From the NCBI GenBank assembly GCA_958413985.1, contig CATYVZ010000006.1:2072-66071 (forward strand): a DNA stretch of 64,000 nt. The letters run 5' to 3'. Both the position numbers and the translations under genes were made by a program. The first letter of the stretch is position 1; the number at the start of each line of letters is the position of its first letter. This document shows, piece after piece, positions 8,158 to 24,461 of this stretch. Origin of the DNA: an uncultured Bacilli bacterium (GTDB lineage: Bacteria > Bacillota_I > Bacilli_A > RF39 > UBA660). The notes below the pieces were generated by a model. The model did no database searches. It worked only from the letters and a program-made list of their open reading frames with translations, and had not been told where the DNA came from.

Positions 8158-8173
8158 AATGATAAGACGAGCT

Positions 8174-8467
8174 TTATTGCTCGTTATCCTCCATACTAGA
8201 ATTAACTTCTTCTTGTAGTTCTTCTAAAATTGTTTCGATTATTTTCCATTCTTTTTCGGTTTCAATCGCAGTTAAATTTAGGTTTTCTGAATCTGGTGTA
8301 TAAATAGAGGCATAGACTTTGGTATTGCCTTGTTCATCTGTTGTGTTATCGGTATATACTATATAATTTTTATTAGTTTCGTCAGATTCAAAAGTAAATA
8401 AGACTTCACATTCTATTTCATTTCCTTTATCATCTATTACTTTAAATTTCATTTGTTCTTCTTTCAT
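8174..8467 (-). CDS. DUF1292 family protein (YrzB-like)
   Basis: 97 aa acidic protein with the conserved ...EVLFTFESDETNKNYIVYT... core, sitting between ruvX and mltG. Confidence 0.7.
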   Translation of the reverse strand: MKEEQMKFKVIDDKGNEIECEVLFTFESDETNKNYIVYTDNTTDEQGNTKVYASIYTPDSENLNLTAIETEKEWKIIETILEELQEEVNSSMEDNEQ

Positions 8468-8470
8468 ATT

Positions 8471-8875
8471 TTAATTTCCTTTCTTATCTAAAAATGTTTG
8501 CAATATAATAGTGGCGGCTAAAGAATCAACTTTTTCTTTTCTTTTTTTACGCGATAAATCAGCTGCAATCATATAGTTGTGAGCTGAAACTGTCGATAAT
8601 CGCTCATCTTGTAATATTACTTTGTAATTTTCGTTTTCAAGTTTTTCTTTGAAGGCTAATGTTTCTAAAGCTCTTGGACCTAATGTGTTATTCATGTTTT
8701 TTGGCAATCCTAATATGATCGTTTCGATCTTATATTCTTTGATTACCTCAGCTAGTTGTTTTAACAAAACCTGATCATTATCATAGGTTATTGTTTTTAA
8801 AGGTGTAGCAATTTGTCCTTTAGAAACAGCTAAACCTAATGTTTTAGTACCTAAATCTAGTCCTAAATAATTCAT
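8471..8875 (-). CDS. ruvX: Holliday junction resolvase-like protein RuvX/YqgF
   Basis: LGLDLGTKTLGLAVS N-terminus of the RNase H-like YqgF family. Confidence 0.85.
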   Translation of the reverse strand: MNYLGLDLGTKTLGLAVSKGQIATPLKTITYDNDQVLLKQLAEVIKEYKIETIILGLPKNMNNTLGPRALETLAFKEKLENENYKVILQDERLSTVSAHNYMIAADLSRKKRKEKVDSLAATIILQTFLDKKGN

Positions 8876-9123
8876 TTGATAAAATTAGTGACTAAAACTT
8901 CAAGAACTCTAGTTCGATCAAATTTTGTTATCTTGTTTCTTGCTTCTTTATGACTTGAAATATAACCAGGATCTCCGCTCATCAAATAACCGACTAACTG
9001 ATTTTTAGCGTTGTATCCTCTTTCTTCAAGTATTTCGATTACATCTTTGATTGTCTTAGCAATCAATTCGTCTTCTATTTCATTGGCTGTAAAGATTTTC
9101 GTTTCATCCATTATGAACACCAC
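8872..9123 (-). CDS. ireB: UPF0297/DUF965 protein IreB (YrzL-like)
   Basis: 83 aa containing ...GYLMSGDPGYISSHKEARNKI... Confidence 0.75.
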   Translation of the reverse strand: MVFIMDETKIFTANEIEDELIAKTIKDVIEILEERGYNAKNQLVGYLMSGDPGYISSHKEARNKITKFDRTRVLEVLVTNFIK

Positions 9124-9227: not shown

Positions 9228-10541
9228 CTAGAGTTGATTATCTAAATCATTTCTTTGACCATCTTTTATTATATATTCTTCTTTAGTTCTTGAATCATAG
9301 ACATAGGTTACCTTTTGTGGTGTATTAACTTCTTCTTTTTTTATAAATATATTTTCTATCTTTTCTTTTACCTGTTCTTTGTTAAATGGTTTTGATATGT
9401 AATCTACAAATCCTTCTTTGATATATTTTTCTCTTGCTCCTGATACTGCATCAGCTGTTAATGCTATTACTGGTGTTTTAAATTCTTTATTTTCTTTTAA
9501 TTTGGCTAAAGCTCTTTCACCACTCATATTAGGCATCATTATATCCATCAATATTAAATCATATTCTTTTTCTTTTACTTTTTCGATGCACTCTATTCCA
9601 TCATAACATTCTTCTATTTCAAAGTTAAAATCTTGCAATGCTTTAATTGCTACTTTGATGTTTAATTTATTATCATCTACTATCAATATCTTTTTGCCTG
9701 ATAAATCTTTTTTGTTTTCGTTAGATAACTCATTTATATCGATATTTTCTCTTTTTTGATTACTTATTTTCTGAGGTAAATAAACTACAAATATCGATCC
9801 TTTTCCGTATTGACTTTGAACATTTATCTTACCACCCATCATCTCTACTAATGACTTAGTTATAGCTAGTCCTAATCCGGTTCCTTCGGTTGTTGAATTC
9901 ATCTCAACATCTAATCTTTCAAATTTAGTGAATAATTTGTTGATATTTTCTGCTTTTATTCCTTTCCCTGTGTCCTTAACACTTATGATTAATTTACATA
10001 TATCTTTTTCATTGATACATTTTATTCCTAATGTTATCATACCTTTTTCTGTATATTTGATCGCATTAGACAATAAATTGTTGATTACTTGTTTTATATG
10101 AATCCTATCCCCGATTAATTCTTCCGGTAAATCTTCAGCTATATCTAATTTAAATTCGATTGGTTTTTCTTTTATTCTACTAGTCGTCACTTTACATAAT
10201 GACACTATTTCTTTTTTTAAATTATATGGAGTATTGATAATTTCCATTTTTTCTGATTCGATCTTATTTATATCTAAGATATTACCTACTATTTCCAATA
10301 GCGTTTGTGAAGCATTTTGAATATCAGTAGCATCTAAAGCTACTTCGTTTGGTACTTGATCTTTATAGCTTACGATATCTTCACTTAATCCTACTATTGC
10401 ATTTAATGGCGTTCTTATCTCATGAGACATACTACTTAAAAAGTCACTCTTAGCTCGATTAGCTTTCTCAGCTAAATCTTTTGCTAGAGTCATTTGTTGT
10501 AACATCTTAACATCTGGATTTTCGATTGTAAAATACATGAT
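9228..10541. repeat. 1314-bp direct repeat, copy A. It is >99.7 % identical to 22500..23813 and covers the HisKA-HATPase-REC coding part.
   Basis: The two copies align base-for-base at an offset of 13272 bp, with 3 differences: 9231/22503 (g/a), 9258/22530 (a/g) and 10518/23790 (a/g). The latter two are synonymous. Identity stops abruptly after ...aaatacatgat. Confidence 0.9.
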
Positions 10542-11159
10542 TACACAAATTAAAGTCTCTATATATGTCATAATCAAAAGTTGAGGATTACTTATTTGAA
10601 TAGAAATCGCTATACCACCGATAATTAAAAATATAAAAACAGGTATATATTTTTTATTTTTAAGTTTATTAATATTTGTTACCAACATAAATAATATAAC
10701 AATAATTGCTAAAGCCGAAATAAGATAAGTAAAATAAACACTCGCTCCAGTTGTATATCTTATTTTGAAATCATTCTCAATAATTATATTGATAGGTAAA
10801 ATAGATAAAATAATACCTACAATTATATAATATATAATAAATATAACATATCTATTCTTCTTAATTTCTAAATCATTATTTATGATACTATAAATATAAT
10901 AAGCAAATGTAGAAATCCATAGAATTATATAAAACAGATAAATTTTATAAATAATTACACTAATTAAAGGATGGTCAAAATAAATAAAAGAAGCATAAGT
11001 GCATAATAATTCTATTATCAATCCTACAAAATTAGAAATTATCAAAACACTGAATATTTGTGTCTCTTTACTATTTATATGTCCCTTAACATAAAACAAA
11101 ATTATAACTAACAAACTAAAAGGTACTGCACATAAAGGAAAAAATATTCCACTTCCCAT
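9228..11159 (-). CDS. Hybrid sensor histidine kinase, copy 1. It has a multi-TM sensor domain, HisKA, HATPase_c and a C-terminal receiver (REC) domain.
   Basis: H-box SHEIRTPLNAIVG, G-boxes (GTGLGLAI) and a REC domain (ILIVDDN...LILMDIMMP). The likely start is the second Met at 11159, which has a GGAGG RBS; the track start at 11177 has none. The C-terminal ~437 aa are identical to copy 2. Confidence 0.85.
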   Translation of the reverse strand: MGSGIFFPLCAVPFSLLVIILFYVKGHINSKETQIFSVLIISNFVGLIIELLCTYASFIYFDHPLISVIIYKIYLFYIILWISTFAYYIYSIINNDLEIKKNRYVIFIIYYIIVGIILSILPINIIIENDFKIRYTTGASVYFTYLISALAIIVILFMLVTNINKLKNKKYIPVFIFLIIGGIAISIQISNPQLLIMTYIETLICVIMYFTIENPDVKMLQQMTLAKDLAEKANRAKSDFLSSMSHEIRTPLNAIVGLSEDIVSYKDQVPNEVALDATDIQNASQTLLEIVGNILDINKIESEKMEIINTPYNLKKEIVSLCKVTTSRIKEKPIEFKLDIAEDLPEELIGDRIHIKQVINNLLSNAIKYTEKGMITLGIKCINEKDICKLIISVKDTGKGIKAENINKLFTKFERLDVEMNSTTEGTGLGLAITKSLVEMMGGKINVQSQYGKGSIFVVYLPQKISNQKRENIDINELSNENKKDLSGKKILIVDDNKLNIKVAIKALQDFNFEIEECYDGIECIEKVKEKEYDLILMDIMMPNMSGERALAKLKENKEFKTPVIALTADAVSGAREKYIKEGFVDYISKPFNKEQVKEKIENIFIKKEEVNTPQKVTYVYDSRTKEEYIIKDGQRNDLDNQL

Positions 11160-11187
11160 ATCATAACCTCCATACATCTATTTTGAT

Positions 11188-11202
11188 GTAATTATACCAC
11201 AC
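11188..11202 (-). promoter_or_regulatory. TRTG-extended -10 promoter for kinase copy 1 (TGTGgTATAAT), with no obvious -35
   Basis: Minus strand reads ttttttttGTGTGGTATAATtacatc, about 25 nt upstream of the first ATG. Confidence 0.4.
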
Positions 11203-11219
11203 AAAAAAAAGAATAGCAA

Positions 11220-12986
11220 TTATATACTATTCTTCAATTTTAATACTTTTGAGGCATTTATTTTTTCAACTGCATCATTTTCTAAATAGTCATAGTCAAT
11301 TTTTTCTGTACCCTTTTTTCTAGGAATCTCTGAAACAAATTCAATATAAGTAGGTATTTCATAGCGTTTTAATTGTTCTACTTGTCCATTGGCAGTTATT
11401 ATCGGTTTATTAAACTGTTCTTTAATTTCTTCTAAAACTTGATCTGATTGTTCTACTCCATCATTTAAAACAATATACGCCTTATTAACATATAAAGAAT
11501 CTTTAGCTGGAACTTTAACAACAGCACATTCACTCACTTTATCAAAATAAGAAATAATGTTTTGAACACGATCACAATATACTTTATTTAATGTAGAAAT
11601 TATATAAAATCTTGACTGTCTTCCTGTTAAGGTAAAATAACCTTGACGATCAATGAAACCTAAAGTACCAGTTTTAAAGTATATTTTTCCATCTTTTTCA
11701 AATTTAGCTTCTTTAGTTAATTCTGGCTGTTTATAATATTCCTTAAAAACATGTTTACCACAAACACATAATAATCCTTCTTCGTTGTATTTTTTTTCTT
11801 CCATTGTATCAGGATCAACTATAATTGCCTCGGTTCCAACAAGAATCTTGCCAGCTGTTTCCGGTCTTATTTCGATTCCTGTTGGATTAGTTCCACAACT
11901 TACCGTTTCAGCATTTCCTGAACCATTACCTATTTCTACGTTCTTAGCTCCATGATTTTCAAAAAAGTCTTTACCTCTCTTATAATGATTTGGAGTCAAA
12001 AAATCTCCTCCAGAAATAAATGTAGTAATAGATGATAGATCTTGATCTTTAGGTGTATAACGCATAATTAATTCTAATAATGCTGGACTTCCAAAGATAA
12101 TATTAGGCTTTTTCTTCAAATAATAACAAATAGTATCTTTGGAAATATTAGGAGCAAGAATTGCTGTTTTTTTACTCAATAAAGTCATAATTGTTGATGT
12201 GGCAAAACCATAAGGATAAGAAAATGGTACGCATACGAGTGTTCTATCACCATTTAAAGATTTAATGTGACTAGAATTTTTTAAATATACTCCTGCCGCC
12301 AAAACATTTTCATTAGTTAAAACAACCGATTTTGGTTTACCTGTTGTACCACTGGTAAATAATATCAAAGCGTCATCTTTCCCAGAGTTATTTGCCAAAC
12401 CTTTGCTCTGATATTTAGAAATACTTCCTAAACTATTAAAGTCGATCTTACTGTCATCACTAGTAATATGATAATCTTCATTTAATGATAATGTATTTGT
12501 TTTTTGTTTATCTAAAGTAATAATATATTTAACATTTGTTTTATTTTTTATATTAATATTTTCTTCTTTACTTTTATCATAGTTAATGAAAACAGGTGAT
12601 TCGAATAAATTAAGATAATCACAAATTTCATCTACTTGTGCATTAATATCTAAAAATGTCATCACCGCACCAATTCGATTACAAGCTAAAAATGCTGCTA
12701 CCGCCTGATAATAATTGGGCATACACACTGAAATAATATCGTTTTTTTTGACACCTAATTCTTTTAAAGCTTTGGAAATAGTTATAGCATCTTTAAATAG
12801 TTGATCATAACTTACTGTTAGATCAAGACAATCAATAGCATCTTTTCCTTTATAAAATGAATTTATTAATTTAATAGAATTGTAAATACTCATATTAGGT
12901 ATAATTGGATTTTTAGCAAAAATTGAATAACCTTTATTCTGTGGTTTATCAAAACTAGGATAGTCTTTAAAGTTTTCTTCCTTCAT
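11220..12986 (-). CDS. adenylate-forming enzyme, copy 1 (AMP-dependent synthetase/ligase, acyl-CoA-ligase-like)
   Basis: A3/core motif LFTSGTTGKPKSV, a YGxTE-like motif and a C-terminal domain. Strong GGAAGGGGGA RBS. Confidence 0.8.
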   Translation of the reverse strand: MKEENFKDYPSFDKPQNKGYSIFAKNPIIPNMSIYNSIKLINSFYKGKDAIDCLDLTVSYDQLFKDAITISKALKELGVKKNDIISVCMPNYYQAVAAFLACNRIGAVMTFLDINAQVDEICDYLNLFESPVFINYDKSKEENINIKNKTNVKYIITLDKQKTNTLSLNEDYHITSDDSKIDFNSLGSISKYQSKGLANNSGKDDALILFTSGTTGKPKSVVLTNENVLAAGVYLKNSSHIKSLNGDRTLVCVPFSYPYGFATSTIMTLLSKKTAILAPNISKDTICYYLKKKPNIIFGSPALLELIMRYTPKDQDLSSITTFISGGDFLTPNHYKRGKDFFENHGAKNVEIGNGSGNAETVSCGTNPTGIEIRPETAGKILVGTEAIIVDPDTMEEKKYNEEGLLCVCGKHVFKEYYKQPELTKEAKFEKDGKIYFKTGTLGFIDRQGYFTLTGRQSRFYIISTLNKVYCDRVQNIISYFDKVSECAVVKVPAKDSLYVNKAYIVLNDGVEQSDQVLEEIKEQFNKPIITANGQVEQLKRYEIPTYIEFVSEIPRKKGTEKIDYDYLENDAVEKINASKVLKLKNSI

Positions 12987-13015
12987 TTATTAATCCCCCT
13001 TCCAAAATCAAATAT

Positions 13016-13044
13016 ATAATAACGCAAATAACATTTTATGTCAA
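13016..13044 (-). promoter_or_regulatory. sigmaA-type promoter for the ligase-1/kinase-1 operon (TTGACA-17-TATTAT)
   Basis: Minus strand reads TTGACAtaaaatgttatttgcgtTATTAT, about 30 nt upstream of the RBS. Confidence 0.45.
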
Positions 13045-13090
13045 TTTTATTAAAATGACTAAATAAACGTTTTTCCGCTTATATAATTTA

Positions 13091-13459
13091 TTATTTATAA
13101 TTTTTTATTCCTTCTATATATTTTTTATAAATTATTCTTAAATTCCATAACCAATTTACTACATAATCAGAAAATTCACTTTCACTACCTAACTTATCAT
13201 TACAGATATATTTTGTCTGAAGAATATCTGATTTTTCGTAAAGATTTATCAAAATTTCGTTATCAATCATGTCTAGTTTTCTAGTTTTTTCATATTGTGC
13301 TGCCCATTTTGATATTATTTCTAACATATTATTGTATATTTCAAAATCTTCTTTATAAGTATCAAATTGTAAAATCAAATTTAAATAACCCATAAGACTT
13401 ATAAAGCATTTGCTAATATTTTTATAAGTCGGATTTGAATCTATATATTTATTTTTCAT
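13091..13459 (-). CDS. hypothetical protein (122 aa)
   Basis: ORF with no recognisable motifs. Confidence 0.4.
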   Translation of the reverse strand: MKNKYIDSNPTYKNISKCFISLMGYLNLILQFDTYKEDFEIYNNMLEIISKWAAQYEKTRKLDMIDNEILINLYEKSDILQTKYICNDKLGSESEFSDYVVNWLWNLRIIYKKYIEGIKNYK

Positions 13460-13511
13460 AAATTTTCCTTTTTTTAATACATATTATAATTTTTTATTAT
13501 TTAGAAAATTA

Positions 13512-14028
13512 TTACAAATCAAATTCGTAAATATTTTCTATGATTTTCAATCCACCAACATTTCCATCTTCACTATCGATTATTTTTCCACCTAATGCCG
13601 TGTAAAAATTTTCAGATGGACTTCCTTTTAAACATCTAACTATTATATTTTTATATCCCATATTTTTTAACAAATCAAAACATTCTGTAATTAATTTTTT
13701 ACCAATTCCTTTTCTTTGATTTTCTTTTTCTATATATATTGAATAAACTTCACCCATATCTACATAATCATTTCCACGTCCTTTACCATAGCAAGCAAAA
13801 CCCAATATGTCATTATCTTCTTCATAAACAATATAATGATATTCATTATCTTTTTTTATAGCTTCTTTTATATTATTATTTCTTTGTTCAAAATTTTTCT
13901 CTTGATTTATAAATATTTCTTCAGGAAAAAACTCACTATAAGTTGTCTTCCATGAATTTATATGTATTCTAGTTATTTTTTTTATGTGTTTATAGGTAAT
14001 CTTTGAAATACTTTTACATTTTTTCCAT
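13512..14028 (-). CDS. GNAT family N-acetyltransferase whose 5' end is disrupted by a +1 frameshift in an A6 tract. This could be a pseudogene, a slippage site or a sequencing error.
   Basis: The GNAT body frame is open from 14033 down to 13512 (...ITRIHINSWKTTYSEFFPEE...YHYIVYEEDNDILGFACYG...QRKGIGKKL...) with no in-frame start. An ATG at 14028 is followed by ATGGAAAAAATGTAA. Removing one A from the tract (14019..14024) fuses the ATG in frame, giving MEKCKSISKITYKHI... A TRTG-extended -10 (TGTGgCATAAT) lies at 14070..14081. Confidence 0.5.
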
Positions 14029-14170
14029 AAATATCACTTAATTCTTTATCTATATTTGATTCAAGATGTGATTATGCCACACGAAAGAAAATGGATATTA
14101 AAAATAATCTTATGATTTAGGACTAATTCTATGATTTATTTATCAACTTTAATATCAATAATAAAACACA

Positions 14171-14887
14171 TCATATATTTAGAATACTTTTAACTTCTTT
14201 TGCAGCTTGACAAATCAATTTAGTGCCATTTGACAAACATATTTTTCCATGACCAGATAAAACTATATCAGCTTTATATTTTGTTAACTTTATTATACTA
14301 TTAACAATTGCTTCTTTATTAAAAGCTGGATCCCCTTCCCAACCAAATAAAAATTTATTTAAGAAGACGCCATCTGCTTCCAATGTGTCACCGGTAAACA
14401 AAACAAATTCACCATCAACTTTTGCCCTAATAGCCATTCCTCCATTTGTATGCCCTGGTATCATAATAAATTCAAATACAATACCATTGATAATCATTTC
14501 TTGATCTACAAATATTTCTACATCAGGAATAAACGCAGGAAATGATTGTTCTATGTCATCTGATGTTCCTTTTGGACCGCCTTGTTTACAATAATTTGTA
14601 TCACCTGCCCCTACTATTATCTTTGCACCTGTCATTTGTAATTCTTTAGCACCGCCACAGTGATCATGGTGTCCATGAGTAAGAATAACATGCGTTATAG
14701 GCGAATTAATATTAAATTTTTTTAACGTTTTTCTTATTATAGCAGGACCGTTTAAAGCCTCTCCGCAATCTATTAATATTAATCCTTGATCTGTATTTAT
14801 ACCATATACTTCGCCTAATGTCCCTTTATTATTTTCAGCAGCAAAGCAGCTACCACTTAAATAAAATAAATTATTTGAAATTATCAA
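14171..14887 (-). CDS. MBL-fold metallo-hydrolase
   Basis: HxHxDH motif (THGHHDHCGG) with the downstream His and Asp ligands. TTG start with a GGAGG RBS. Confidence 0.75.
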   Translation of the reverse strand: MIISNNLFYLSGSCFAAENNKGTLGEVYGINTDQGLILIDCGEALNGPAIIRKTLKKFNINSPITHVILTHGHHDHCGGAKELQMTGAKIIVGAGDTNYCKQGGPKGTSDDIEQSFPAFIPDVEIFVDQEMIINGIVFEFIMIPGHTNGGMAIRAKVDGEFVLFTGDTLEADGVFLNKFLFGWEGDPAFNKEAIVNSIIKLTKYKADIVLSGHGKICLSNGTKLICQAAKEVKSILNI

Positions 14888-14915
14888 TTAAATCATCCTC
14901 CTTAAGATAAATTAT

Positions 14916-15623
14916 TTAATCAGCAATATCTACTGTTTCATCATCATTTGAAATAAGTTCAATATTTCCTTTACAAATTCTATAACATTTCCCATAAATT
15001 TTATTATTAAATACATATGATTTATCAGGAAGTCCATAAATAATTCTATTATTTGATTCTTTTATTATTGCATCCATTTGAATCTTGTTAGGATTATCAC
15101 AATCAAAATGCGGCTCAACATTAATTGTAGTTAAATCAAGTCCTTCTAATATAGTAGGGTTAGTTAAATCTTTTTCATTTTCAGGACTACTAAATACAAT
15201 TTTTGCACTATTTATTGAACCAGCACTTATGCCAACAATACACGCATCAGTTTTTTTTATATATTTTTTAAGATTTATGTTATTAAAAAACTTGTTTTGT
15301 TGAAATGCATTACCACCACTAAGAAAAATAAGTGAACTATTATTAAGTACATTATCAATATCTTCTTTATTACGATTATCAAGTACAACATTTTCCTTGA
15401 AGTGAAGCCCAGATAACGCTAGGACTTTCATATCTAATTTTAGATACTCATCATTTTGTTCATAATTATCAGGATCGCTCGCAATAATAACAAATTTATT
15501 ATAATTATTTATATTTTCCTTCATATTTTTTAAAAAATTATTATCTTCAAAAAATTTTACTGGTATTTTTTTACCATTTTCTTTTTTTATCCCCCCAATA
15601 TTACTAGCTAAAAATAATTTCAT
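14916..15623 (-). CDS. S51 family peptidase (peptidase E/cyanophycinase-like; Asp-Xaa dipeptidase fold)
   Basis: LSGGN and GISAGS nucleophile-elbow motifs, plus conserved His and Glu. Strong AAGGAGGA RBS. Confidence 0.65.
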   Translation of the reverse strand: MKLFLASNIGGIKKENGKKIPVKFFEDNNFLKNMKENINNYNKFVIIASDPDNYEQNDEYLKLDMKVLALSGLHFKENVVLDNRNKEDIDNVLNNSSLIFLSGGNAFQQNKFFNNINLKKYIKKTDACIVGISAGSINSAKIVFSSPENEKDLTNPTILEGLDLTTINVEPHFDCDNPNKIQMDAIIKESNNRIIYGLPDKSYVFNNKIYGKCYRICKGNIELISNDDETVDIAD

Positions 15624-15633
15624 TTTATCCTCC

Positions 15634-16656
15634 TTATTTATTAATGTTATACAATAAACTATTTTCTATATTTTTTTGTAAAGTTAACACTTTGTAAAAC
15701 TCATCTTTTTTTTGTTCAAAACTAGAATGATATTCCGCACCCAAATAATTTATAATTAAATTAACTACATCTTCATTAGGATATTGTAATTGCTCATTCC
15801 AATAATTTAATACACGTAAATATTGCCTAAATTTCATTCTTAAATGCTTGGATGAATGATTAGTAACATCTTCTTTTAATAAAATTGCTACAGCTACTAA
15901 TGCATCAGCAAATTTTTCTTTCATAATAGAATCTATATCAAGAAAATCTGCTATTCTTGAGCTGGATACTGTTGAACTTGTACCAAATTTACACATTGAT
16001 AAAGCTAAGTTACTGATTCCCATATCGACAGCTAACTTTCTTTCATTATTTTCCATAACAACAAAAGAAGCAAAATTCAAAAACTCGTTTGTACCTTTTT
16101 TTTTAAGTCCTATATTAAAATCCCTTCCAAAAATATTTTTTTCATCCATACCATATCGATGTCTATAATGTTCAATACTTGATTGATCAACTAAACGAGT
16201 TATTTTACTATCAACATTTTCAGTAGCCTTTATTAAATCCTCATCCGTAGAACTTACCCTTATACAAAGATTTTCAGGAGAGATATGCAAATATTTTTCA
16301 TCAGTTAAATAATCAAAAGTATCTTTAACAATTCTTTCTAGTTCTGGTTTTGCTATTATTCCCATTCCTCTATAATAACAGCCAAATTTTTGCGGTACAT
16401 TTGTTTGTAAATATTTAAATGATTTAAATTTCATACACTCTTGCACGATATATCTTCCAACATCACCGTAATTTTCAGTCTCTAAGTATTTTTTTAATGG
16501 TGAAATATTAGAACCAATAAAGTCAACCGTTGGATCAATTTTTGAAGTAACATTAACTGCAAGTTCTTCAATGTATCCTTTCTCATTAAAACAAACTTTA
16601 AATTTTTCTTCTATAAAATCTAAATATTCGCTTTTGCTAATTTTTTTATCACTCAT
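15634..16656 (-). CDS. stand-alone paralog of the alanyl-tRNA synthetase catalytic core (class II aaRS-like, AlaRS N-terminal domain only)
   Basis: 340 aa that align by eye to the first ~250 aa of the alaS in this window. DPTVDFIGSNISPLKKYL matches DPSVLFNTAGMQPLIPYL, QECMKF matches QKCIRT, ISPENLCIRVS matches IPVERLAVTVF, and AVDMGISNLALS matches the motif-3 region NVDTGMGYERV. The tRNA-recognition and editing domains are absent. Confidence 0.55.
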   Translation of the reverse strand: MSDKKISKSEYLDFIEEKFKVCFNEKGYIEELAVNVTSKIDPTVDFIGSNISPLKKYLETENYGDVGRYIVQECMKFKSFKYLQTNVPQKFGCYYRGMGIIAKPELERIVKDTFDYLTDEKYLHISPENLCIRVSSTDEDLIKATENVDSKITRLVDQSSIEHYRHRYGMDEKNIFGRDFNIGLKKKGTNEFLNFASFVVMENNERKLAVDMGISNLALSMCKFGTSSTVSSSRIADFLDIDSIMKEKFADALVAVAILLKEDVTNHSSKHLRMKFRQYLRVLNYWNEQLQYPNEDVVNLIINYLGAEYHSSFEQKKDEFYKVLTLQKNIENSLLYNINK

Positions 16657-16661
16657 TTATA

Positions 16662-18506
16662 TCACTCTACTTCTTTTTTATCGTTAGACATTTTTAATAG
16701 TTCTCCTAAATAATAACTAATATTAGATTCAGTTACACTATTATTAATACTACCTTTATACGAATCAAGTTTTAAAAAACTATCAATTTCTTTTCCCAAT
16801 TGTTTAACAGTTTCTTTATACATTTGTGTATTAAATCTAGGAGTACATATTAATATACTTTTTGTAAGATTTATTTTATGTTTTTTAATTAATTCAACTG
16901 TTTTAGCCACTGATTCATTAGTATCCCCCATCATACCAAGCATAAAGAAACCATTATAATTAATTCCTGCTTTTTTGATTGCATATAGGGCTTTTAATAA
17001 TTGTTCATTAGAATAATTCTTGTTATTAATTTTACGAACATTTTCATCAAAACTTTCAATTCCTAACCAAATTAATTGGCAACCTGCTTTTTTCATAACA
17101 ACAAGAGTATCATAATCTATTGAATTTATACAAATCTGACATTGCCATTTGATTTGAATATTAGCCTTTATCATTTCTTTACATAAATTTTTTGCGTAAT
17201 TTTTATCAAGTATGAAATTCTGATCTAAGAAAAATATTTCTGTTATTCCACGTTTTTGTATTTCTTTTAATTCAGCTACTACTGATTCTATTTTTCTAAA
17301 ACGAACACTTTTGGCAAAAAAGTTGTAACAAAAAGCACAATTAAATGGACACCCTCTACTTGCCTGAACAATACTCCAGTGCAATTTTCTTACTGGCATA
17401 TTGTCATGATACCTATAACCAAAATAACAATCTAAATGAATCAAATCATAATTAGGTATATATTTACACCATTCAGTTGGATGTTGTTCATTCAAATCTT
17501 CTCTTGTTTTAATTAATTTTTTATTCTTTTTATAAATAATATTGGGAAGATTTTCAATTGGAAGATTTTGATCCATATCCCTAATTATATTAGCAAGCTG
17601 GATATCAAATTCGCCTTTTAATATATAATCTGGGTTACAATCTTTAAAGACGATATCTGGTCTCACAGTACCATGTCCTCCGCATACAATAATTGGTATA
17701 TTATTAAACTTATTTTTGATAGTTTTTACATATTTTGTAAAAACTACATAACGATAATCAACAAAATAATTATGTACTTGATCAACTGTTGAAGAACAAA
17801 TGACTATTCCTTTTTTGTAATCACGTATAATATTAAGTAAATCAGTTAATGAATAATTATAAATTCGATTATCAAGAATATCAACATCTATAAAAAAATT
17901 ATTTTTTAAATAAGTTGCACAATTCATTAAAGCTAAAGGCGGTTGAACAAAAGTTGTTCCATTTAAAAATTCTGGTATTAAGAATATGTATTTCCCTTTT
18001 TTCTTGAATTTTTTACTCATATCATTATTTAAACTTGTAATTGCATCAGTTAAATAATCTGGGGCTTCTTTAGTAATTTCTTCTATTTTCTTTTTACTTA
18101 TATCAAGTTGTTTTGGGCTATAAACACGATGCGTATTTTTTATAAAGTATAATATAGCAACAAGTTTTCTGGGTTTCATATCCTCGATAGCAAAAATTGC
18201 ATCAAATATTTCATTCTGTAAAGATTTTGTAGTATACTTATAAATTATTGATGATAATTCAATGATCTGTGCTATAAAATTTGATTGTTTTTTAATGCTA
18301 CTAACAACTTTTCTAACATATTCTCTTTTTTCCACTAAAGTTGCCTGTTTTAAAAAATATGTACGCATAATAAGCAATAAATTAATTTGTTCTGATTCAC
18401 TAAATTTATCAATTTTTTTTATAGTTTCATCATAAATTTCTTTTTGTTTCTTATTATTATATGTATTTATTCTTTTTATTTTTAATAATAATGTTTCTTT
18501 ATCCAC
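16662..18506 (-). CDS. B12-binding-domain radical SAM enzyme (class B radical SAM) with an unassigned ~170-aa N-terminal domain
   Basis: CxxxCxxC (RGCPFNCAFCYN), a preceding Rossmann-like B12-binding region (...IPIIVCGGHGT...), and a GTG start with an AGGAGA RBS. It lies 17 nt downstream of the preceding gene. Confidence 0.75.
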   Translation of the reverse strand: MDKETLLLKIKRINTYNNKKQKEIYDETIKKIDKFSESEQINLLLIMRTYFLKQATLVEKREYVRKVVSSIKKQSNFIAQIIELSSIIYKYTTKSLQNEIFDAIFAIEDMKPRKLVAILYFIKNTHRVYSPKQLDISKKKIEEITKEAPDYLTDAITSLNNDMSKKFKKKGKYIFLIPEFLNGTTFVQPPLALMNCATYLKNNFFIDVDILDNRIYNYSLTDLLNIIRDYKKGIVICSSTVDQVHNYFVDYRYVVFTKYVKTIKNKFNNIPIIVCGGHGTVRPDIVFKDCNPDYILKGEFDIQLANIIRDMDQNLPIENLPNIIYKKNKKLIKTREDLNEQHPTEWCKYIPNYDLIHLDCYFGYRYHDNMPVRKLHWSIVQASRGCPFNCAFCYNFFAKSVRFRKIESVVAELKEIQKRGITEIFFLDQNFILDKNYAKNLCKEMIKANIQIKWQCQICINSIDYDTLVVMKKAGCQLIWLGIESFDENVRKINNKNYSNEQLLKALYAIKKAGINYNGFFMLGMMGDTNESVAKTVELIKKHKINLTKSILICTPRFNTQMYKETVKQLGKEIDSFLKLDSYKGSINNSVTESNISYYLGELLKMSNDKKEVE

Positions 18507-18523
18507 AATTCATGTCTCCTATA

Positions 18524-20707
18524 TTATTTTTTAAAATCAGTTTCACTAATTTTACTTTCAACTATTTTAAACTTTTTATTTTCATATACTATTTTACAAT
18601 AATCAATATCAATATATTGTTCACCATCAATTGCTGACTTCAAATTACTCATTGTTGCTCCATGAGTAATGATTGCAAACTTCTTATAAGAACTATTAAC
18701 TAAATATTTTTCTAAAAAATACATTAATCTTTCCCTAACATGATTAATACTTTCACCATCAGCTACAACTTTATTATAATTAACAATTGCCTCTTTACCT
18801 TCTTGACTATTTAAAAAATCAGAAAGTGGTTTACCTTGAAATTTTCCCACATTCCAAGCTCTTAACTCTTTATGAAAAGATACTGGTATTTTAAAACCAT
18901 TATTAGCTAGTTCAACGGTTCTTCTAGTCCTAATAAGATCTGATGAATAAATATATTCAATTTCATTTTTCTTTAATTCTAAAGCAATTTTATTAATTTG
19001 CTCTAATCCTTTATCAGTAAATTTCAAAGATGCATCTTCAAATGTTCCTCTAATTTTATTTTCAACATTCCAATTAGTTTCACCATGTCTAAAAATATAA
19101 ATTTCTTTTTTGTCATTTTTTTTACTATTCTTCTCTTCTAACTTTTTCATTGGAGATAATCTATCTCTTAATCTGAAATCCATATTTTTATTATCGTTAA
19201 CAAAATCTTCTATTTTATTTATTTTTTTATCTGGAAAAAACATATTATAATATGCAATTGCTGTTTGAACATCTTGTTCTGACATTTCAAAGTGTCCTAG
19301 TTTAACTAACCCTAAGAAATCTTTATACTTATCCCTATCTAGTTGTTCACTTAATTCTTGATTTAATATTGAAGTATTAGAATTTAGATAATATTTTTTT
19401 ATAACATTTTTAGGTGATTTTATTAATTTTTGCATACTAACAGGCATGTTTTCTATTAATTTTTCATTTACAAGCCCTTGCTTTATGTAATCTTGTAATA
19501 TTCTAATATAAGCATAAAGCCTTATTTTTGCATCAGCAAAAAGGATTGCACTTGCATAATCTCTAATACCATTAGCTTTCATTAACGTAACTGTTTTAGG
19601 TGATATTTCTAATACAATTTTTTCTCTATATTTTGAACCATTATCAATATATGCTCTTGTAATTAAATTTGTCAATGTATGATTTAATGATGTTTCGTAA
19701 TTATCTTCATAGATATTTAATTGATCATCTTGAATACTATTTTGCCATGTACTAATGTTGCCATTATATTCTACAAGCCAATCTAATCCAAATCCACCAT
19801 CAGAATTATATACACGTGACGGAAAATAATTTTGTGATTCATCTAAATCTATGTCATACAGTTCTACCATTTTCATAAATGATTCATTATTATGTAGATT
19901 TGGTCTAAATGATGGATAAAATACCCTTGATATTCCAATTATTATTTCAAAACCAGAATCGAGTATTAATTTTGATTTCCAAGGCATTATCTTAATAATT
20001 TTATCATCATCAGATTTATTAGGTTGAAACTTTTCAATTTTATATTTTCTCCCAATTGTTTTTAGATTATTTTCTAATGTTGAATCTTCTTTAAATGTTT
20101 TTATTTGTAAAGTAAAGTTTTTATTATATCTATATTTAGATTCAAATATATTAATTAAGTTTTCTAACGGAAGATGTTTTAATTTAATACTATGATATTG
20201 ACTAACACTTAATCTAATAGAGATACGTGCTTTCTTTTTTCTTTTTTTGATAGCTTGATATATTTCATCTAAATATTTTTCCGCTCTTTCTTTATTATAT
20301 GCCCATAGACCACCAGTAACTAAAACTATCCTATCAGCGTTTATTTTTTCAATACTTTTTAATAGTGCTTCTTTTTCTAAAAAAGGCTCTCCGCCACCAG
20401 ATATTTGTAAATAACCAACATTTGCTTTATTAGCAAAATCAATAAATTTATCAACACCTTCAGGAGTAAATTGATTCTTAATATTCTTTTTACTAGCTGA
20501 CGATAAAGCTTTAAAACAGCAGAAAGGACAGCCAACATCACACACTGATGTAAACATAACCAATACCAATGATTTTCCTGCATATTTTTTCTTATCAATT
20601 TTTAATAAACCTTCTTGTTTATTAATTGAATCTATATACATTTCTGGATAATTAAATATATTTTCTATATTACAATCAATATTTTTTATTTCTTCTTTTT
20701 TCACCAT
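18524..20707 (-). CDS. fusion protein: N-terminal radical SAM domain, a central domain of unknown function, and a C-terminal histidine phosphatase (phosphoglycerate-mutase-like) domain
   Basis: CDVGCPFCC radical-SAM cysteine triad with a QISGGGEP SAM-binding motif. The C-terminus has IYIFRHGETNWN (RHG catalytic motif) and ...IITHGATM... typical of the His_Phos_1 superfamily. Confidence 0.75.
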   Translation of the reverse strand: MVKKEEIKNIDCNIENIFNYPEMYIDSINKQEGLLKIDKKKYAGKSLVLVMFTSVCDVGCPFCCFKALSSASKKNIKNQFTPEGVDKFIDFANKANVGYLQISGGGEPFLEKEALLKSIEKINADRIVLVTGGLWAYNKERAEKYLDEIYQAIKKRKKKARISIRLSVSQYHSIKLKHLPLENLINIFESKYRYNKNFTLQIKTFKEDSTLENNLKTIGRKYKIEKFQPNKSDDDKIIKIMPWKSKLILDSGFEIIIGISRVFYPSFRPNLHNNESFMKMVELYDIDLDESQNYFPSRVYNSDGGFGLDWLVEYNGNISTWQNSIQDDQLNIYEDNYETSLNHTLTNLITRAYIDNGSKYREKIVLEISPKTVTLMKANGIRDYASAILFADAKIRLYAYIRILQDYIKQGLVNEKLIENMPVSMQKLIKSPKNVIKKYYLNSNTSILNQELSEQLDRDKYKDFLGLVKLGHFEMSEQDVQTAIAYYNMFFPDKKINKIEDFVNDNKNMDFRLRDRLSPMKKLEEKNSKKNDKKEIYIFRHGETNWNVENKIRGTFEDASLKFTDKGLEQINKIALELKKNEIEYIYSSDLIRTRRTVELANNGFKIPVSFHKELRAWNVGKFQGKPLSDFLNSQEGKEAIVNYNKVVADGESINHVRERLMYFLEKYLVNSSYKKFAIITHGATMSNLKSAIDGEQYIDIDYCKIVYENKKFKIVESKISETDFKK

Positions 20708-20761
20708 TTTTCAACATCTACTTTCTTTGTTTTTTTTACAAGATTCCTATTATTAAACATA

Positions 20762-22201
20762 CTATCTTTTATTAAATTCTTTTATCTTTCTTTTTGCATA
20801 AGTGGTCTGTGCTTTATTTATCCAATCTTCTCTTGGCCCAAATGATAAATCATCAGTAACTATTCTAACTCTATCTTTATTTTGTAATACATAATCTACT
20901 GGTACATATTCATCATTTACAAACACTCCAACCATTGTGTTTCCTATATCTGTATGAATTTTATAGGCAAAATCTATCGCTGTCGCCCCTTTGGGAAGCT
21001 CTATAATATCTCCTTTAGTTGTATAAACATATACTCTATCAGCAAATAATTCACTTTTTACTTGATTTATAAATTGTTGATTATCTCCAAACATAGAATT
21101 TATTTCTGTTAACGATTTAAAAAATTGAAATTTTTCTTTTAGATTCTCTTGCATCACATCTCTTGCTTTTCCTTTTTGTTCATCCCAATATGCCGTTAAA
21201 CCAAACGATGCTACTTTGTCCATATCGAAAGTTCTAATTTGAGTTTGAACTAATCTATCATCAGGACCAAACACTGTCGTATGTAAACTTCTATACATAT
21301 TTGTTTTTGGATTACATATATAATCTTTAAATTTATCATTTATTGGATGATATTCTTGATGAATCAAACCTAATGTTAAGTAACAATTTTCTATTTCATC
21401 AACCATTATTTTTAAAGCAAGCAAATCATGAATATCTGATAATTTATGACCTTCATTTAATCTTTTGTATATACCATATATATTTTTAGTTCTTACTTTT
21501 ATTTCATTAGGTATATTCCTATTTTTTAATAATGTTTCTATTTTATATAGCATTTCCTTAAGACAGTTTTTACTTGTTTCTTCAATCTTTGTTTTTCTTT
21601 CTTCAATTTTTTTATACATGTCTGGTTTAAGATATTGTAAAGATAAATCTTCTAGTTCTGACTTTATTCTATATGCTCCGATATAATATGCAAGTGGTAC
21701 AAATATTTCCATCGTTTCAAGGGCATTTTCTTTTTGCTTAAATTCTGATTTAAACTCTAATGTTCTCATATTATGAAGTCTATCGGCAAGTTTTATTATA
21801 ATTATTCTTACATCTTCTGTTATTCCTGTTATTATCTTTCGAGTATTTGCTAAATTTTGATCTTGTTTCGAAGAAAAATTCATTTTAGATAGTTTTGTTA
21901 CTCCATCTACTAAATTAGCAATATTTTGGTTAAAATCATGGGCAATATCTTCTTTAGTAATATTAGTATCTTCTAAAGTATCATGTAAAAGACCTGCACA
22001 TACTGTATCTTTATCAGCATGCATGTCAGATAAAATATATGCAACATTCAAAGGATGACTTATATATGGTTCACCACTTTGTCTCATTTGTCCTTTATGC
22101 AAAGCATCTGCATATTCATAAGCCTTTTTTACAATTCCTATCTCATCTGGATTATATTCTTCTAGTTTATTTAATAAATCTTGTAACACAATATTATTCA
22201 T
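20762..22201 (-). CDS. RelA/SpoT homolog (long RSH; HD hydrolase + synthetase + TGS) that lacks the C-terminal helical/ACT(RRM) region. The true start is at 22201.
   Basis: HD motif LLHDTLEDT, synthetase motifs (IHDLLALKIMV; RSLHTTVFGPDDRLVQTQIRTFDMDKVASFGLTAYW) and a TGS domain (VYVYTTKGDIIELPKGATAIDFAYKIHTDIG). The ATG at 22201 has a GGAGGTG RBS. The 24-codon upstream extension in the ORF track lacks one. Confidence 0.8.
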   Translation of the reverse strand: MNNIVLQDLLNKLEEYNPDEIGIVKKAYEYADALHKGQMRQSGEPYISHPLNVAYILSDMHADKDTVCAGLLHDTLEDTNITKEDIAHDFNQNIANLVDGVTKLSKMNFSSKQDQNLANTRKIITGITEDVRIIIIKLADRLHNMRTLEFKSEFKQKENALETMEIFVPLAYYIGAYRIKSELEDLSLQYLKPDMYKKIEERKTKIEETSKNCLKEMLYKIETLLKNRNIPNEIKVRTKNIYGIYKRLNEGHKLSDIHDLLALKIMVDEIENCYLTLGLIHQEYHPINDKFKDYICNPKTNMYRSLHTTVFGPDDRLVQTQIRTFDMDKVASFGLTAYWDEQKGKARDVMQENLKEKFQFFKSLTEINSMFGDNQQFINQVKSELFADRVYVYTTKGDIIELPKGATAIDFAYKIHTDIGNTMVGVFVNDEYVPVDYVLQNKDRVRIVTDDLSFGPREDWINKAQTTYAKRKIKEFNKR

Positions 22202-22250
22202 CAAAACACCTCCGAATAGAAAAATAATCGGTGCTAAAAACACATAATGT

Positions 22251-22388
22251 TTAACTAGCACCGATATTATCATATTTGTTATTTAAAGCAGAATAGAAAC
22301 ATGAACAAATAATGTCAGTAAAATATTGATTTCTAACACTTAATTCTTTTACATAATCAATGATTAATTCATCAATTAGTTTTATCAT
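22251..22388 (-). CDS. small protein (45 aa), first gene of the operon
   Basis: MIKLIDELIIDYVKELSVRNQYFTDIICSCFYSALNNKYDNIGAS. It has a very strong RBS (GAGGGGGAA + 6 nt + ATG) directly downstream of the operon promoter. Confidence 0.45.
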   Translation of the reverse strand: MIKLIDELIIDYVKELSVRNQYFTDIICSCFYSALNNKYDNIGAS

Positions 22389-22420
22389 ACTAAATTCCCC
22401 CTCAAATAAATTTAAGCAAT

Positions 22421-22448
22421 ATTTTACTACTTTACAAAAAAATGTCAA
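22421..22448 (-). promoter_or_regulatory. sigmaA-type promoter (TTGACA-16-TAAAAT) for the operon small ORF -> rel-like -> rSAM/His-phosphatase -> B12-rSAM -> AlaRS-like -> S51 peptidase -> MBL hydrolase
   Basis: Minus strand reads TTGACAtttttttgtaaagtagTAAAAT, followed by intergenic gaps of only 5-54 nt down to 14171. Confidence 0.45.
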
Positions 22449-22499
22449 TAGTTTTATAAAAATAAATCACCGTTAAAACAATTAATATCTAAAATACAT

Positions 22500-23813
22500 C
22501 TAAAGTTGATTATCTAAATCATTTCTTTGGCCATCTTTTATTATATATTCTTCTTTAGTTCTTGAATCATAGACATAGGTTACCTTTTGTGGTGTATTAA
22601 CTTCTTCTTTTTTTATAAATATATTTTCTATCTTTTCTTTTACCTGTTCTTTGTTAAATGGTTTTGATATGTAATCTACAAATCCTTCTTTGATATATTT
22701 TTCTCTTGCTCCTGATACTGCATCAGCTGTTAATGCTATTACTGGTGTTTTAAATTCTTTATTTTCTTTTAATTTGGCTAAAGCTCTTTCACCACTCATA
22801 TTAGGCATCATTATATCCATCAATATTAAATCATATTCTTTTTCTTTTACTTTTTCGATGCACTCTATTCCATCATAACATTCTTCTATTTCAAAGTTAA
22901 AATCTTGCAATGCTTTAATTGCTACTTTGATGTTTAATTTATTATCATCTACTATCAATATCTTTTTGCCTGATAAATCTTTTTTGTTTTCGTTAGATAA
23001 CTCATTTATATCGATATTTTCTCTTTTTTGATTACTTATTTTCTGAGGTAAATAAACTACAAATATCGATCCTTTTCCGTATTGACTTTGAACATTTATC
23101 TTACCACCCATCATCTCTACTAATGACTTAGTTATAGCTAGTCCTAATCCGGTTCCTTCGGTTGTTGAATTCATCTCAACATCTAATCTTTCAAATTTAG
23201 TGAATAATTTGTTGATATTTTCTGCTTTTATTCCTTTCCCTGTGTCCTTAACACTTATGATTAATTTACATATATCTTTTTCATTGATACATTTTATTCC
23301 TAATGTTATCATACCTTTTTCTGTATATTTGATCGCATTAGACAATAAATTGTTGATTACTTGTTTTATATGAATCCTATCCCCGATTAATTCTTCCGGT
23401 AAATCTTCAGCTATATCTAATTTAAATTCGATTGGTTTTTCTTTTATTCTACTAGTCGTCACTTTACATAATGACACTATTTCTTTTTTTAAATTATATG
23501 GAGTATTGATAATTTCCATTTTTTCTGATTCGATCTTATTTATATCTAAGATATTACCTACTATTTCCAATAGCGTTTGTGAAGCATTTTGAATATCAGT
23601 AGCATCTAAAGCTACTTCGTTTGGTACTTGATCTTTATAGCTTACGATATCTTCACTTAATCCTACTATTGCATTTAATGGCGTTCTTATCTCATGAGAC
23701 ATACTACTTAAAAAGTCACTCTTAGCTCGATTAGCTTTCTCAGCTAAATCTTTTGCTAGAGTCATTTGTTGTAACATCTTAACATCTGGGTTTTCGATTG
23801 TAAAATACATGAT
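22500..23813. repeat. 1314-bp direct repeat, copy B (partner of 9228..10541)
   Basis: See copy A. Confidence 0.9.
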
Positions 23814-24413
23814 AATAACAATTAGCGAAAAAACATATCCTATTAAAAATAATTGTGGATAAAAAACACCTAAAACAAAAACTAAACCACCTAAAAAAAT
23901 TAAGGCATATAATGGTGTAAATTTAGATTTTACAATTTTCTTCATATATTTTATGCAAATAATTATATCAAACATTAAAAATAGCAAACACAAACCGTAA
24001 GTTAAATAAATTGATAATCCTTGCGGAATTATGGTATCGTCAACTCTAATAAAGTTGATTGGTAACAACAATATAATTAATACGATAAAAGCAACAATAA
24101 AATTAAATATTCTATTTCTATTTTCTTTATAGTTACATATATTTAACAAATAATTTAAAAACAATGCGCTCCAAACAGCATAATATGAAGATGTTAATTT
24201 AGAAAACAACTTATATATAGTTGTTTCAACAGATATTCCAGATTCATACCAAATACAAGTTAATATTTCTAAAAATAACCCCAATAATGTAACTATTAAT
24301 AACTTACTATAAATAGTTGTTTCACTATTTTTTACTCTTTGTTTTGAAAAAAACATAAATGACAAAATTAACAATATTAGTAATGAACTAATTGAAAAAT
24401 ACACACCCATCAT
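22500..24413 (-). CDS. Hybrid sensor histidine kinase, copy 2. Its multi-TM sensor domain differs from copy 1; the transmitter and receiver are identical to copy 1.
   Basis: The C-terminal ~437 aa are identical to copy 1. The N-terminal ~200 aa (about 6 TM segments) are unrelated in sequence. Start is ambiguous between GTG at 24422 and ATG at 24413 or 24410. Confidence 0.85.
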   Translation of the reverse strand: MMGVYFSISSLLILLILSFMFFSKQRVKNSETTIYSKLLIVTLLGLFLEILTCIWYESGISVETTIYKLFSKLTSSYYAVWSALFLNYLLNICNYKENRNRIFNFIVAFIVLIILLLPINFIRVDDTIIPQGLSIYLTYGLCLLFLMFDIIICIKYMKKIVKSKFTPLYALIFLGGLVFVLGVFYPQLFLIGYVFSLIVIIMYFTIENPDVKMLQQMTLAKDLAEKANRAKSDFLSSMSHEIRTPLNAIVGLSEDIVSYKDQVPNEVALDATDIQNASQTLLEIVGNILDINKIESEKMEIINTPYNLKKEIVSLCKVTTSRIKEKPIEFKLDIAEDLPEELIGDRIHIKQVINNLLSNAIKYTEKGMITLGIKCINEKDICKLIISVKDTGKGIKAENINKLFTKFERLDVEMNSTTEGTGLGLAITKSLVEMMGGKINVQSQYGKGSIFVVYLPQKISNQKRENIDINELSNENKKDLSGKKILIVDDNKLNIKVAIKALQDFNFEIEECYDGIECIEKVKEKEYDLILMDIMMPNMSGERALAKLKENKEFKTPVIALTADAVSGAREKYIKEGFVDYISKPFNKEQVKEKIENIFIKKEEVNTPQKVTYVYDSRTKEEYIIKDGQRNDLDNQL

Positions 24414-24461
24414 AACACCCACTTATTAATAAAATTTAACATCATTTACTTATCTCTAAAA

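Follow-up and report, generated by a model that had tools for sequence, protein, structure and literature searches.

Here we analyzed two ligase–kinase cassettes in a stretch of 64,000 nucleotides (nt) from an uncultured Bacilli bacterium (RF39, UBA660; assembly GCA_958413985.1, contig CATYVZ010000006.1, positions 2,072 to 66,071 of the forward strand), which is called the window below. Each cassette consists of a gene for an AMP-binding ligase and, directly downstream, a gene for a hybrid histidine kinase (HK-A or HK-B) whose sensor has seven transmembrane (TM) segments. The 3′ parts of the two kinase genes, which encode the output module, are almost identical over 1314 nt. It is highly probable that the cassettes are ancient paralogs whose output module has been homogenized by recurrent gene conversion within the genome, which would connect the different sensors to one output and make the locus prone to gain and loss of cassettes. 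All sequences used are metagenome assemblies. The parts of the cassettes are as follows.

11220..12986, minus strand: ligase A, an AMP-binding enzyme of the ANL superfamily, 42 nt upstream of the HK-A open reading frame (ORF)
10542..11159, minus strand: sensor A, the 7-TM domain of HK-A, which probably starts with MGSG at 11159 (as in protein P0001) in an ORF that reaches 11177
9228..10541, minus strand: module copy A, the 3′ 1314 nt of HK-A, with the end of TM7, the phosphoacceptor domain DHp (HisKA), the catalytic domain CA (HATPase_c), the receiver (REC), a tail of ~45 residues and the stop codon
24462..26180, minus strand: ligase B, an AMP-binding enzyme paralogous to ligase A, 39 nt upstream of the HK-B ORF
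23814..24413, minus strand: sensor B, the 7-TM domain of HK-B and homologous to sensor A, which probably starts with MMGV at 24413 (as in P0005) in an ORF that reaches 24422
22500..23813, minus strand: module copy B, the equivalent 1314 nt of HK-B, with 3 synonymous differences from copy A

Extent and boundaries of the repeat

The two copies lie in register at an offset of 13272, and direct comparison found that they differ at 3 of 1314 bases, in confirmation of the near-identical repeat claimed in the original prediction. The differences are confined to positions 9231, 9258 and 10518, at distances of 4, 31 and 24 nt from the repeat edges, and the longest exact stretch covers 1259 nt (9259-10517). 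The number of differences had been given correctly, but one of them had been called near-silent and all three are synonymous (CTC/CTT for Leu, GGT/GGC for Gly and AAT/AAC for Asn), and the 437 residues encoded by the repeat are 100% identical between HK-A and HK-B. One edge of the identity is the stop codon. The other edge falls at codon 207 of HK-A, within the final turn of TM7 and six residues ahead of an invariant ENPD motif; just past 10541 the identity drops to 24–30 of 50 bases, so the abrupt end at the last TM segment was also described rightly. There is no third copy of the module in the window.

Sensors, ligases and kinase domains

The sensor domains had been thought to be unrelated, and this does not hold. 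They align over their full length with 28% identity and a score of z = 16 against shuffled sequences, which is not attributable to chance, and the sensors are therefore homologous. In the AlphaFold (AF2) model of HK-A residues 1-290 (mean confidence, pLDDT, 84) seven TM helices are followed by the DHp helices, and a beta hairpin lies between TM4 and TM5. Pfam searches at E up to 10 returned no credible family for the sensors. For PF07695 (7TMR-DISM_7TM), sensors A and B and the related types C and E gave no match and type D gave E = 0.07, far below the gathering score; unlike the 7TMR-DISM proteins, the sensors also have no large extracellular domain of DISMED type. The sensor-domain family comprises 849 clusters at 50% identity, and the domain is always N-terminal, mostly in proteins of ~600 residues.

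Ligases A and B are 25% identical by BLAST and 27% identical by global alignment, and the earlier view of them as diverged paralogs is thus supported; ligase and sensor are both about 25–30% identical between the cassettes. Against NCBIfam and the Protein Data Bank (PDB) the ligases were placed in the generic ANL/acyl-CoA synthetase group only, with every NCBIfam match far below its cutoff. No additional ligase beyond A and B was found in the window.

Both kinases have a HisKA domain (PF00512, E = 2e-12), whose H-box motif SHEIRTPLN is invariant across 37 homologs, a HATPase_c domain (PF02518, E = 2e-28) which spans 1-110 of the 111 model positions, and a C-terminal receiver fused to the kinase (PF00072, E = 6e-27). 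The N/G boxes, the H-box and the receiver are intact in both. The top NCBIfam matches were BarA, TorS, LuxQ and ArcB, every one of them under the equivalog cutoff. A fused HPt domain (PF01627) is present in some relatives, and the window kinases instead end in the conserved tail of ~45 residues; by Pfam the HPt domain is absent from both, and neither an HPt-like ORF nor a response regulator or other REC domain was found elsewhere in the window.

Age of the cassettes and of the module

Synonymous (dS) and nonsynonymous (dN) divergence was calculated by the Nei-Gojobori method. Sensors A and B differ with dS 0.93 and dN 0.65, and the two module copies with dS 0.012 and dN 0. The A pair has orthologs in another species (L003), with 76% identity in the ligase, 69% in the sensor and 70% in the module, and so has the B pair (L013), with 70%, 53% and 73%, respectively. 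Among 200 family members the median module identity is 65% for protein pairs with 20–30% sensor identity. The contig collection that was scanned for within-genome tests does not hold the own species of the window (best match 74%), and contigs from the European Nucleotide Archive (ENA) and Logan were used instead; the closest public relatives are metagenome-assembled genomes (MAGs) from animal and human guts, which are labelled uncultured Bacilli, Tenericutes or Mollicutes. Exact searches with the longest ORFs of the window and with P0001 retrieved no contig that encodes them. In five other MAGs with two paralogs the paralogous modules are 71–81% identical at the nucleotide level, and their homology always begins about 640 nt into the gene.

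Judged from these sequences, cassettes A and B are ancient paralogs. A recent duplication of the whole cassette, with very fast divergence of ligase and sensor under diversifying selection afterwards, would suit a tandem array of cassettes with high dN in the sensors, but synonymous sites are saturated in the sensors (dS 0.93) and almost unchanged in the module (0.012), and the type A and type B ligase–sensor pairs have their orthologs in other species. Extreme purifying selection on the output module, acting alone and with no recombination, would fit a module which is more conserved than the sensors across the whole family, but selection at the protein level leaves synonymous sites free, and between lineages the module reaches dS 0.7–0.8. 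The age of the cassettes together with the synonymous-site data therefore excludes both explanations; they were rejected, and the probability left to either one is negligible.

Concerted evolution across the family

In proteins from independent metagenome assemblies, at least six sensor types were found joined to essentially one module. The types are distinguished by their N-termini.

Sensor type A: MGSGIFF
Sensor type B: MMGVYFS
Sensor type C: MLNIYAL
Sensor type D: MNIGIAF
Sensor type E: MYINLTA
Sensor type F: MGCIEMG

The nucleotide identity matrix separates two groups of modules. The first contains both window copies, L001 (type C) and L086 (type B) with 98.5–99.8% identity, and the second contains the type E and type B modules of L082, that of L083 (type C) and a fragment in L084 with 97–99%; the type D module of L084 is 94–95% identical to the second group. 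Between the two groups the identity is 86–88%, with the dS of 0.7–0.8 given above, and module paralogs within one genome (99.8% in the window, ~99% in L082) are thus closer than copies of different lineages. The sensors sort in another way: sensor B of the window and sensor B of L082 are 96.9% identical, sensor C of L001 and sensor C of L083 are 93% identical, and across types the identity is 46–56%. Modules sort by lineage and sensors by type, and the two groupings are discordant.

One scaffold of L082, which represents a sister lineage, carries an E and a B module with 98.97% identity across 1354 nt (99.3% over the coding part, dS 0.028). Their 14 differences mark them as two real copies and not a collapsed repeat, and the sister lineage has evidently homogenized its own module pair independently of the window lineage. 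When the B orthologs of the window and L082 were compared, dS was 0.115 for the sensor and 0.715 for the attached module, and the identity per 100 nt drops from 98 to 83 at the junction 23834/23833, so the module was overwritten from another paralog in at least one lineage. L086, a second strain of the window's species (99.3% identical), differs at 10 module sites where the window copies agree. More widely, 5 of the 114 module clusters (at >=95% amino-acid identity) contain more than one sensor type, and the phenomenon therefore recurs in a few other clades.

The recent gene conversion that had been predicted is borne out by the dS of 0.012 in the module against 0.93 in the sensors and by the discordant groupings. 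Conversion between the two copies thus stands, but its reading as a two-gene event has to be widened, since the process is family-wide, involves at least six sensor types and went on independently in the sister lineage. By all appearances, gene conversion drives a concerted evolution here that affects the output module alone. One recent swap of the domain, whether through illegitimate recombination or through horizontal acquisition of the module, likewise predicts one identical block with sharp edges, and the identical block of P0026 (type F) begins later, after the H-box, which indicates that junctions can differ. Against such a swap, no fewer than six sensor types show the pattern, as do two lineages that have separate module alleles, and the two window copies resemble each other more than they resemble the module of L086, another strain of their species; repeated events are therefore required, and we consider one swap very improbable.

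Variable interval between alaS and ireB

On the minus strand the order of genes is alaS, ligase B–HK-B, a segment from Rel to a 122-residue ORF, ligase A–HK-A and ireB. The same anchors, alaS and ireB, bracket different contents in different assemblies. The landmarks in the window are given first and then the contents of the other assemblies.

26373..28133, minus strand: alaS (short form), upstream anchor of the variable interval, kept in L082-L085, L087 and L089
13091..22499, minus strand: segment between the cassettes, deletable by repeat recombination along with ligase A, sensor A and one module copy
7105..9123, minus strand: ireB-ruvX-DUF1292-mltG, downstream anchor, kept in L083-L087 and L089
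L082: alaS, ligE-HKE, GNAT, ligC (32 nt of HK-C left), ligB-HKB, rel
L083: alaS, ligC-HKC, B-like 3′ flank, remnant '...CAACTCTAG' with A-type flank, ireB
L084/L085 (two samples): alaS, ligC, ligB, 225-residue HATPase/REC fragment, ligD-HKD, ireB
L087 (1.13-Mb contig): alaS, ligB-HKB, GNAT, C39 peptidase, YcaO, ireB
L089: alaS, ligE-HKE, radical-SAM/SPASM/PqqD cluster, GNAT, ireB
L001: ligC, sensor C with window-type module, B flank, start of rel
L086: ligB, sensor B with module, ireB-ruvX

The interval is, as its gene content indicates, a strain-variable island which exchanges cassettes and accessory clusters. L001 has the structure of the product expected from recombination between C and B modules. 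The repeat pair had been proposed as a substrate for deletion and a look for deletion variants in metagenome data had been suggested; one such contig was found, L086, of 3.4 kb and from another sample, which carries exactly the predicted 13.3-kb deletion junction and joins sensor B, the module and ireB. Of its diagnostic sites, the 5′ one matches B and the two 3′ ones match A. The chances that it is a real deletion and that it is an assembler shortcut are about even. Inversion of the intervening operon, which had also been proposed, is rejected because the repeats are direct and direct repeats can only delete or duplicate.

Traces of other events were seen in the interval. In L083 (11921-12258) a B-type 3′ flank of ~150 nt follows the stop codon of HK-C, and a unique stretch of ~70 nt separates it from the final ~10 nt of a kinase gene ('CAACTCTAG'), after which an A-type flank leads to ireB; these ~10 nt are what remains of a kinase that was lost by some route other than recombination at the module repeat. 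In L082 a 214-bp duplicate (92.5% identical) of the alaS 3′ end and spacer stands before ligase C (L082:536-749 against L082:5799-6012), and it looks like the footprint of a cassette insertion or duplication beside alaS. The fragment of 225 residues in L084 (7188-7865), which lies after ligase B, has HATPase_c and REC but neither sensor nor DHp and is 94% identical to the module of the neighboring HK-D; it is a decaying cassette that still carries the module sequence of its lineage.

Proposed mechanism

The unit of the array is an ANL acyl/AMP ligase gene followed by the gene of a 7-TM hybrid histidine kinase, and strains carry variable sets of such units between alaS and ireB. Recurrent homologous recombination within the genome evidently keeps the 1.3-kb DHp-CA-REC-tail segment nearly identical among the cassettes of one genome, with conversion tracts limited to the stretch that is still similar, from the conserved TM7/ENPD junction to the stop codon; this limit would give the sharp edges and would let differences survive only within about 30 nt of them. 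Unequal crossing-over between the identical direct repeats could delete, fuse or reshuffle cassettes and the DNA between them, which would account for part of the differing cassette content among strains.

The partner specificity of two-component systems resides in the DHp and receiver surfaces. As both surfaces are identical here, all sensors of one genome should feed one partner, and we infer that HK-A and HK-B share a downstream partner. The identical phosphotransfer interface would thus connect every sensor to a common many-to-one relay.

The ligase gene lies directly upstream of the kinase gene in 48 of 74 testable loci of other species. There is no gene for a peptide precursor at the locus, where the ligase–kinase gaps are just 39–42 nt, and among ORFs of >=80 residues between 5.2 and 28.1 kb Pfam detected neither an RpfF-type enoyl-CoA hydratase nor an HD-GYP protein of RpfG type. 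An identical output is unable to induce each neighboring ligase specifically, so the linkage more likely reflects shared ligand chemistry, for which RpfB/RpfC and the variable enzyme–sensor blocks of comQXP, both compared below, are precedents. A speculative extension of the conserved linkage is that each ligase may act on, or make, a hydrophobic ligand detected by its sensor. The whole could even be a multi-channel array for chemical sensing or communication, in which each cassette pairs an ANL enzyme, active in the synthesis or consumption of a hydrophobic ligand of acyl or lipid-like nature, with a cognate 7-TM receptor kinase resembling a G protein-coupled receptor, conversion wires all of them to one relay and strains differ in their channels; we consider this reading rather unlikely and offer it tentatively.

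Reliability of the assembly and points against the mechanism

Several points weigh against the mechanism of ancient cassettes with a converted module. The exact repeat of 1259 nt is beyond the span of short reads, so graph collapse or consensus may have removed interior differences between A and B; support for the segment order comes from graph topology and synteny; and L086, a short k141 contig, is possibly an assembler shortcut through the repeat. The three differences near the repeat edges fit conversion that needs flanking homology, and equally a collapsed graph edge. The identical signaling output of the original prediction is a reasonable suggestion in view of the identical DHp and REC domains, but the window holds no HPt protein or response regulator that could serve as the shared partner. 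Moreover, some rearrangements are not simple repeat-mediated ones: ligase C abuts ligase B in L082 and L084, and L083 retains a piece of a kinase 3′ end 215 nt beyond the HK-C stop codon. Other deletion or insertion processes therefore also act at the locus.

The locus had been called an assembly hazard, which is correct. The near-identity or the two-copy layout might even have been made by the assembler, through a collapsed edge traversed twice or a misjoin, with true copies that are divergent or single. The exact repeat 9259-10517 exceeds short-read inserts, its flanking differences sit at the edges only, as is expected for a collapsed graph edge, other assemblies break at the module (the scaffold L088 ends 5 nt past the kinase stop codon and many contigs are of 2-3 kb), and a direct repeat around unique DNA would be a simple loop that can be threaded by topology alone. 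However, collapse in a de Bruijn graph presupposes near-identity, and the four unique-to-repeat junctions (4/4) all recur in independent samples (P0002-P0005, L001, L086, L088). L082 holds its two copies with 14 differences on one scaffold. A gross misjoin, which had been feared, is unlikely because the gene order of the window is corroborated by synteny: rel comes after B in both L082 and L001, and ireB comes after an A-type cassette in L043. We therefore regard an artifact of assembly as improbable.

Comparison with known systems

Concerted evolution of bacterial paralogs by gene conversion is textbook knowledge from tufA/tufB and the rRNA operons. As in these, the paralogs within a genome exceed orthologs in likeness, synonymous sites are homogenized and the tracts are bounded by homology. 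Unlike in these, only part of the gene is homogenized (the transmitter–receiver half), the sensor half and the ligase remain ~25–30% identical, and there are up to six sensor types per module. The literature searched contained nothing relevant on gene conversion in histidine kinases or on kinases in RF39-like bacteria, which does not prove that none exists. Gene conversion as a mechanism is known, and its restriction to the output half of a kinase family in a variable ligase–kinase array appears undescribed in that literature.

The agr specificity groups of staphylococci are a comparable locus of pherotype type. In comQXP of Bacillus subtilis a variable block of enzyme and sensor stands beside a conserved kinase half (PMC6334282). 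As in comQXP, the enzyme gene adjoins the gene of a multi-TM kinase, and a sharp boundary divides the kinase into a conserved kinase half and a 5′ sensor half that is, like the enzyme, highly divergent. The comQXP and agr variants are alleles, one per genome, with a gene for a peptide precursor and an adjacent response regulator, whereas here one genome carries an array of paralogs with an ANL ligase as the enzyme and a receiver-bearing hybrid as the kinase, and no precursor gene or regulator was seen.

Some Vibrio receptors are encoded beside their signal synthase (cqsA-cqsS, luxM-luxN). The hybrid kinases LuxN, LuxQ and CqsS of Vibrio feed one phosphorelay through LuxU to LuxO (PMC5394107, PMC4398556). 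The resemblance to this multichannel quorum sensing is that membrane hybrid kinases with different sensors would serve one relay, which is inferred in our case. The Vibrio receptors have diverged kinase modules and unrelated sensors, whereas here the modules are identical, the sensors are homologous and no HPt partner is present in the window.

A further parallel is the Rpf system of Xanthomonas for the diffusible signal factor (DSF), in which the gene of the fatty acyl-CoA ligase RpfB clusters with that of RpfC, a multi-TM hybrid kinase that senses a fatty-acid signal which undergoes turnover by the ligase (PMC9040794; bioRxiv 10.1101/2022.01.03.474871); the rpf cluster comes in two versions in Stenotrophomonas (PMC4517397). 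Both systems have a gene for an acyl-CoA-type ligase clustered with a multi-TM hybrid sensor kinase. Unlike in Rpf/DSF, there is no RpfF-like synthase, HD-GYP regulator or HPt at the locus and the lineage is Gram-positive-derived; the likeness is one of gene arrangement.

Neighboring genes

The GC content of the DNA is 24-34%, and a scan for promoters and terminators was uninformative in such AT-rich sequence (147 sites against 145 expected). The genes between the cassettes are given below.

20762-22273, minus strand: short Rel
18524-20707, minus strand: fusion of a radical-SAM (rSAM) enzyme and a His-phosphatase
16662-18506, minus strand: B12-rSAM enzyme
15634-16656, minus strand: protein of 340 residues
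14916-15623, minus strand: S51 peptidase
14171-14887, minus strand: metallo-beta-lactamase-type (MBL) hydrolase
13515-14009, minus strand: GNAT
13091-13459, minus strand: ORF of 122 residues

The accessory set of the window (13091-22273) thus includes Rel, two radical-SAM enzymes, an S51 peptidase and an MBL hydrolase. The accessory cluster of L087 (11936-16494) has a C39 peptidase and YcaO, and that of L089 (12390-17915) is similar to clusters for ribosomally synthesized and post-translationally modified peptides (RiPPs), with three radical-SAM/SPASM genes, PqqD and an amidohydrolase. The protein of 340 residues (15634-16656) had no match in Pfam or among solved structures (PDB); its residues 15-183 weakly resemble the N-terminal catalytic region of the short-form alanyl-tRNA synthetase (AlaRS; PRK01584, E = 1.4e-6). 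It is located among radical-SAM, peptidase and MBL genes and may be part of a small-molecule biosynthetic set. The AlaRS encoded by alaS itself has just 586 residues but is not truncated, as it covers the whole length of the short-form model PRK01584 (807 bits; cutoff 529).

Rel matches only positions 1-450 of the 687-position RelA/SpoT model, so the regulatory C-terminal half is missing, and it probably starts at 22201, behind a GGAGG motif. An ORF of 45 codons (22388-22251) upstream of Rel ends in a hairpin with a T-run behind it, and this ORF is kept in L082 and broken in L001. The GNAT of the window extends for 165 residues in frame with its first residues replaced and with no ATG, GTG or TTG start, and the ORF finder gives 97 residues. 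In L082 and L087 an intact copy directly follows a cassette, and in L089 one is located at the end of the island next to ireB, which suggests a rearrangement breakpoint at the 5′ end of the window copy. Between the gene of an AI-2E-family transporter and the gene next to it, a mazE-pemK-fic insertion of about 1.6 kb was seen in L083 (3360-4737) and L087 (3670-5029), and it is absent from the window (~29350) and from L089.

Significance

Duplicated two-component systems are expected to diverge at their interaction surfaces, by which cross-talk is avoided. Here the interaction surface is seemingly kept identical across several sensors by recombination, which is the opposite of the expected divergence and would provide a natural genetic route to many-to-one signal integration. 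The sensor appears to be swapped naturally as a module at a fixed TM7/ENPD junction, and this junction could guide the design of chimeric kinases. Short-read MAG assemblies are broken or mis-threaded by such modules, and the cassette content in this group is probably under-reported.

If the multi-channel array is true, it would amount to paralogous, stackable pherotype loci in an island which also exchanges RiPP and radical-SAM clusters. The organisms belong to an uncultured, small-genome lineage of gut Bacilli with few characterized signaling systems, and the array of ligases and receptors may reflect the reading of gut lipids or small molecules.

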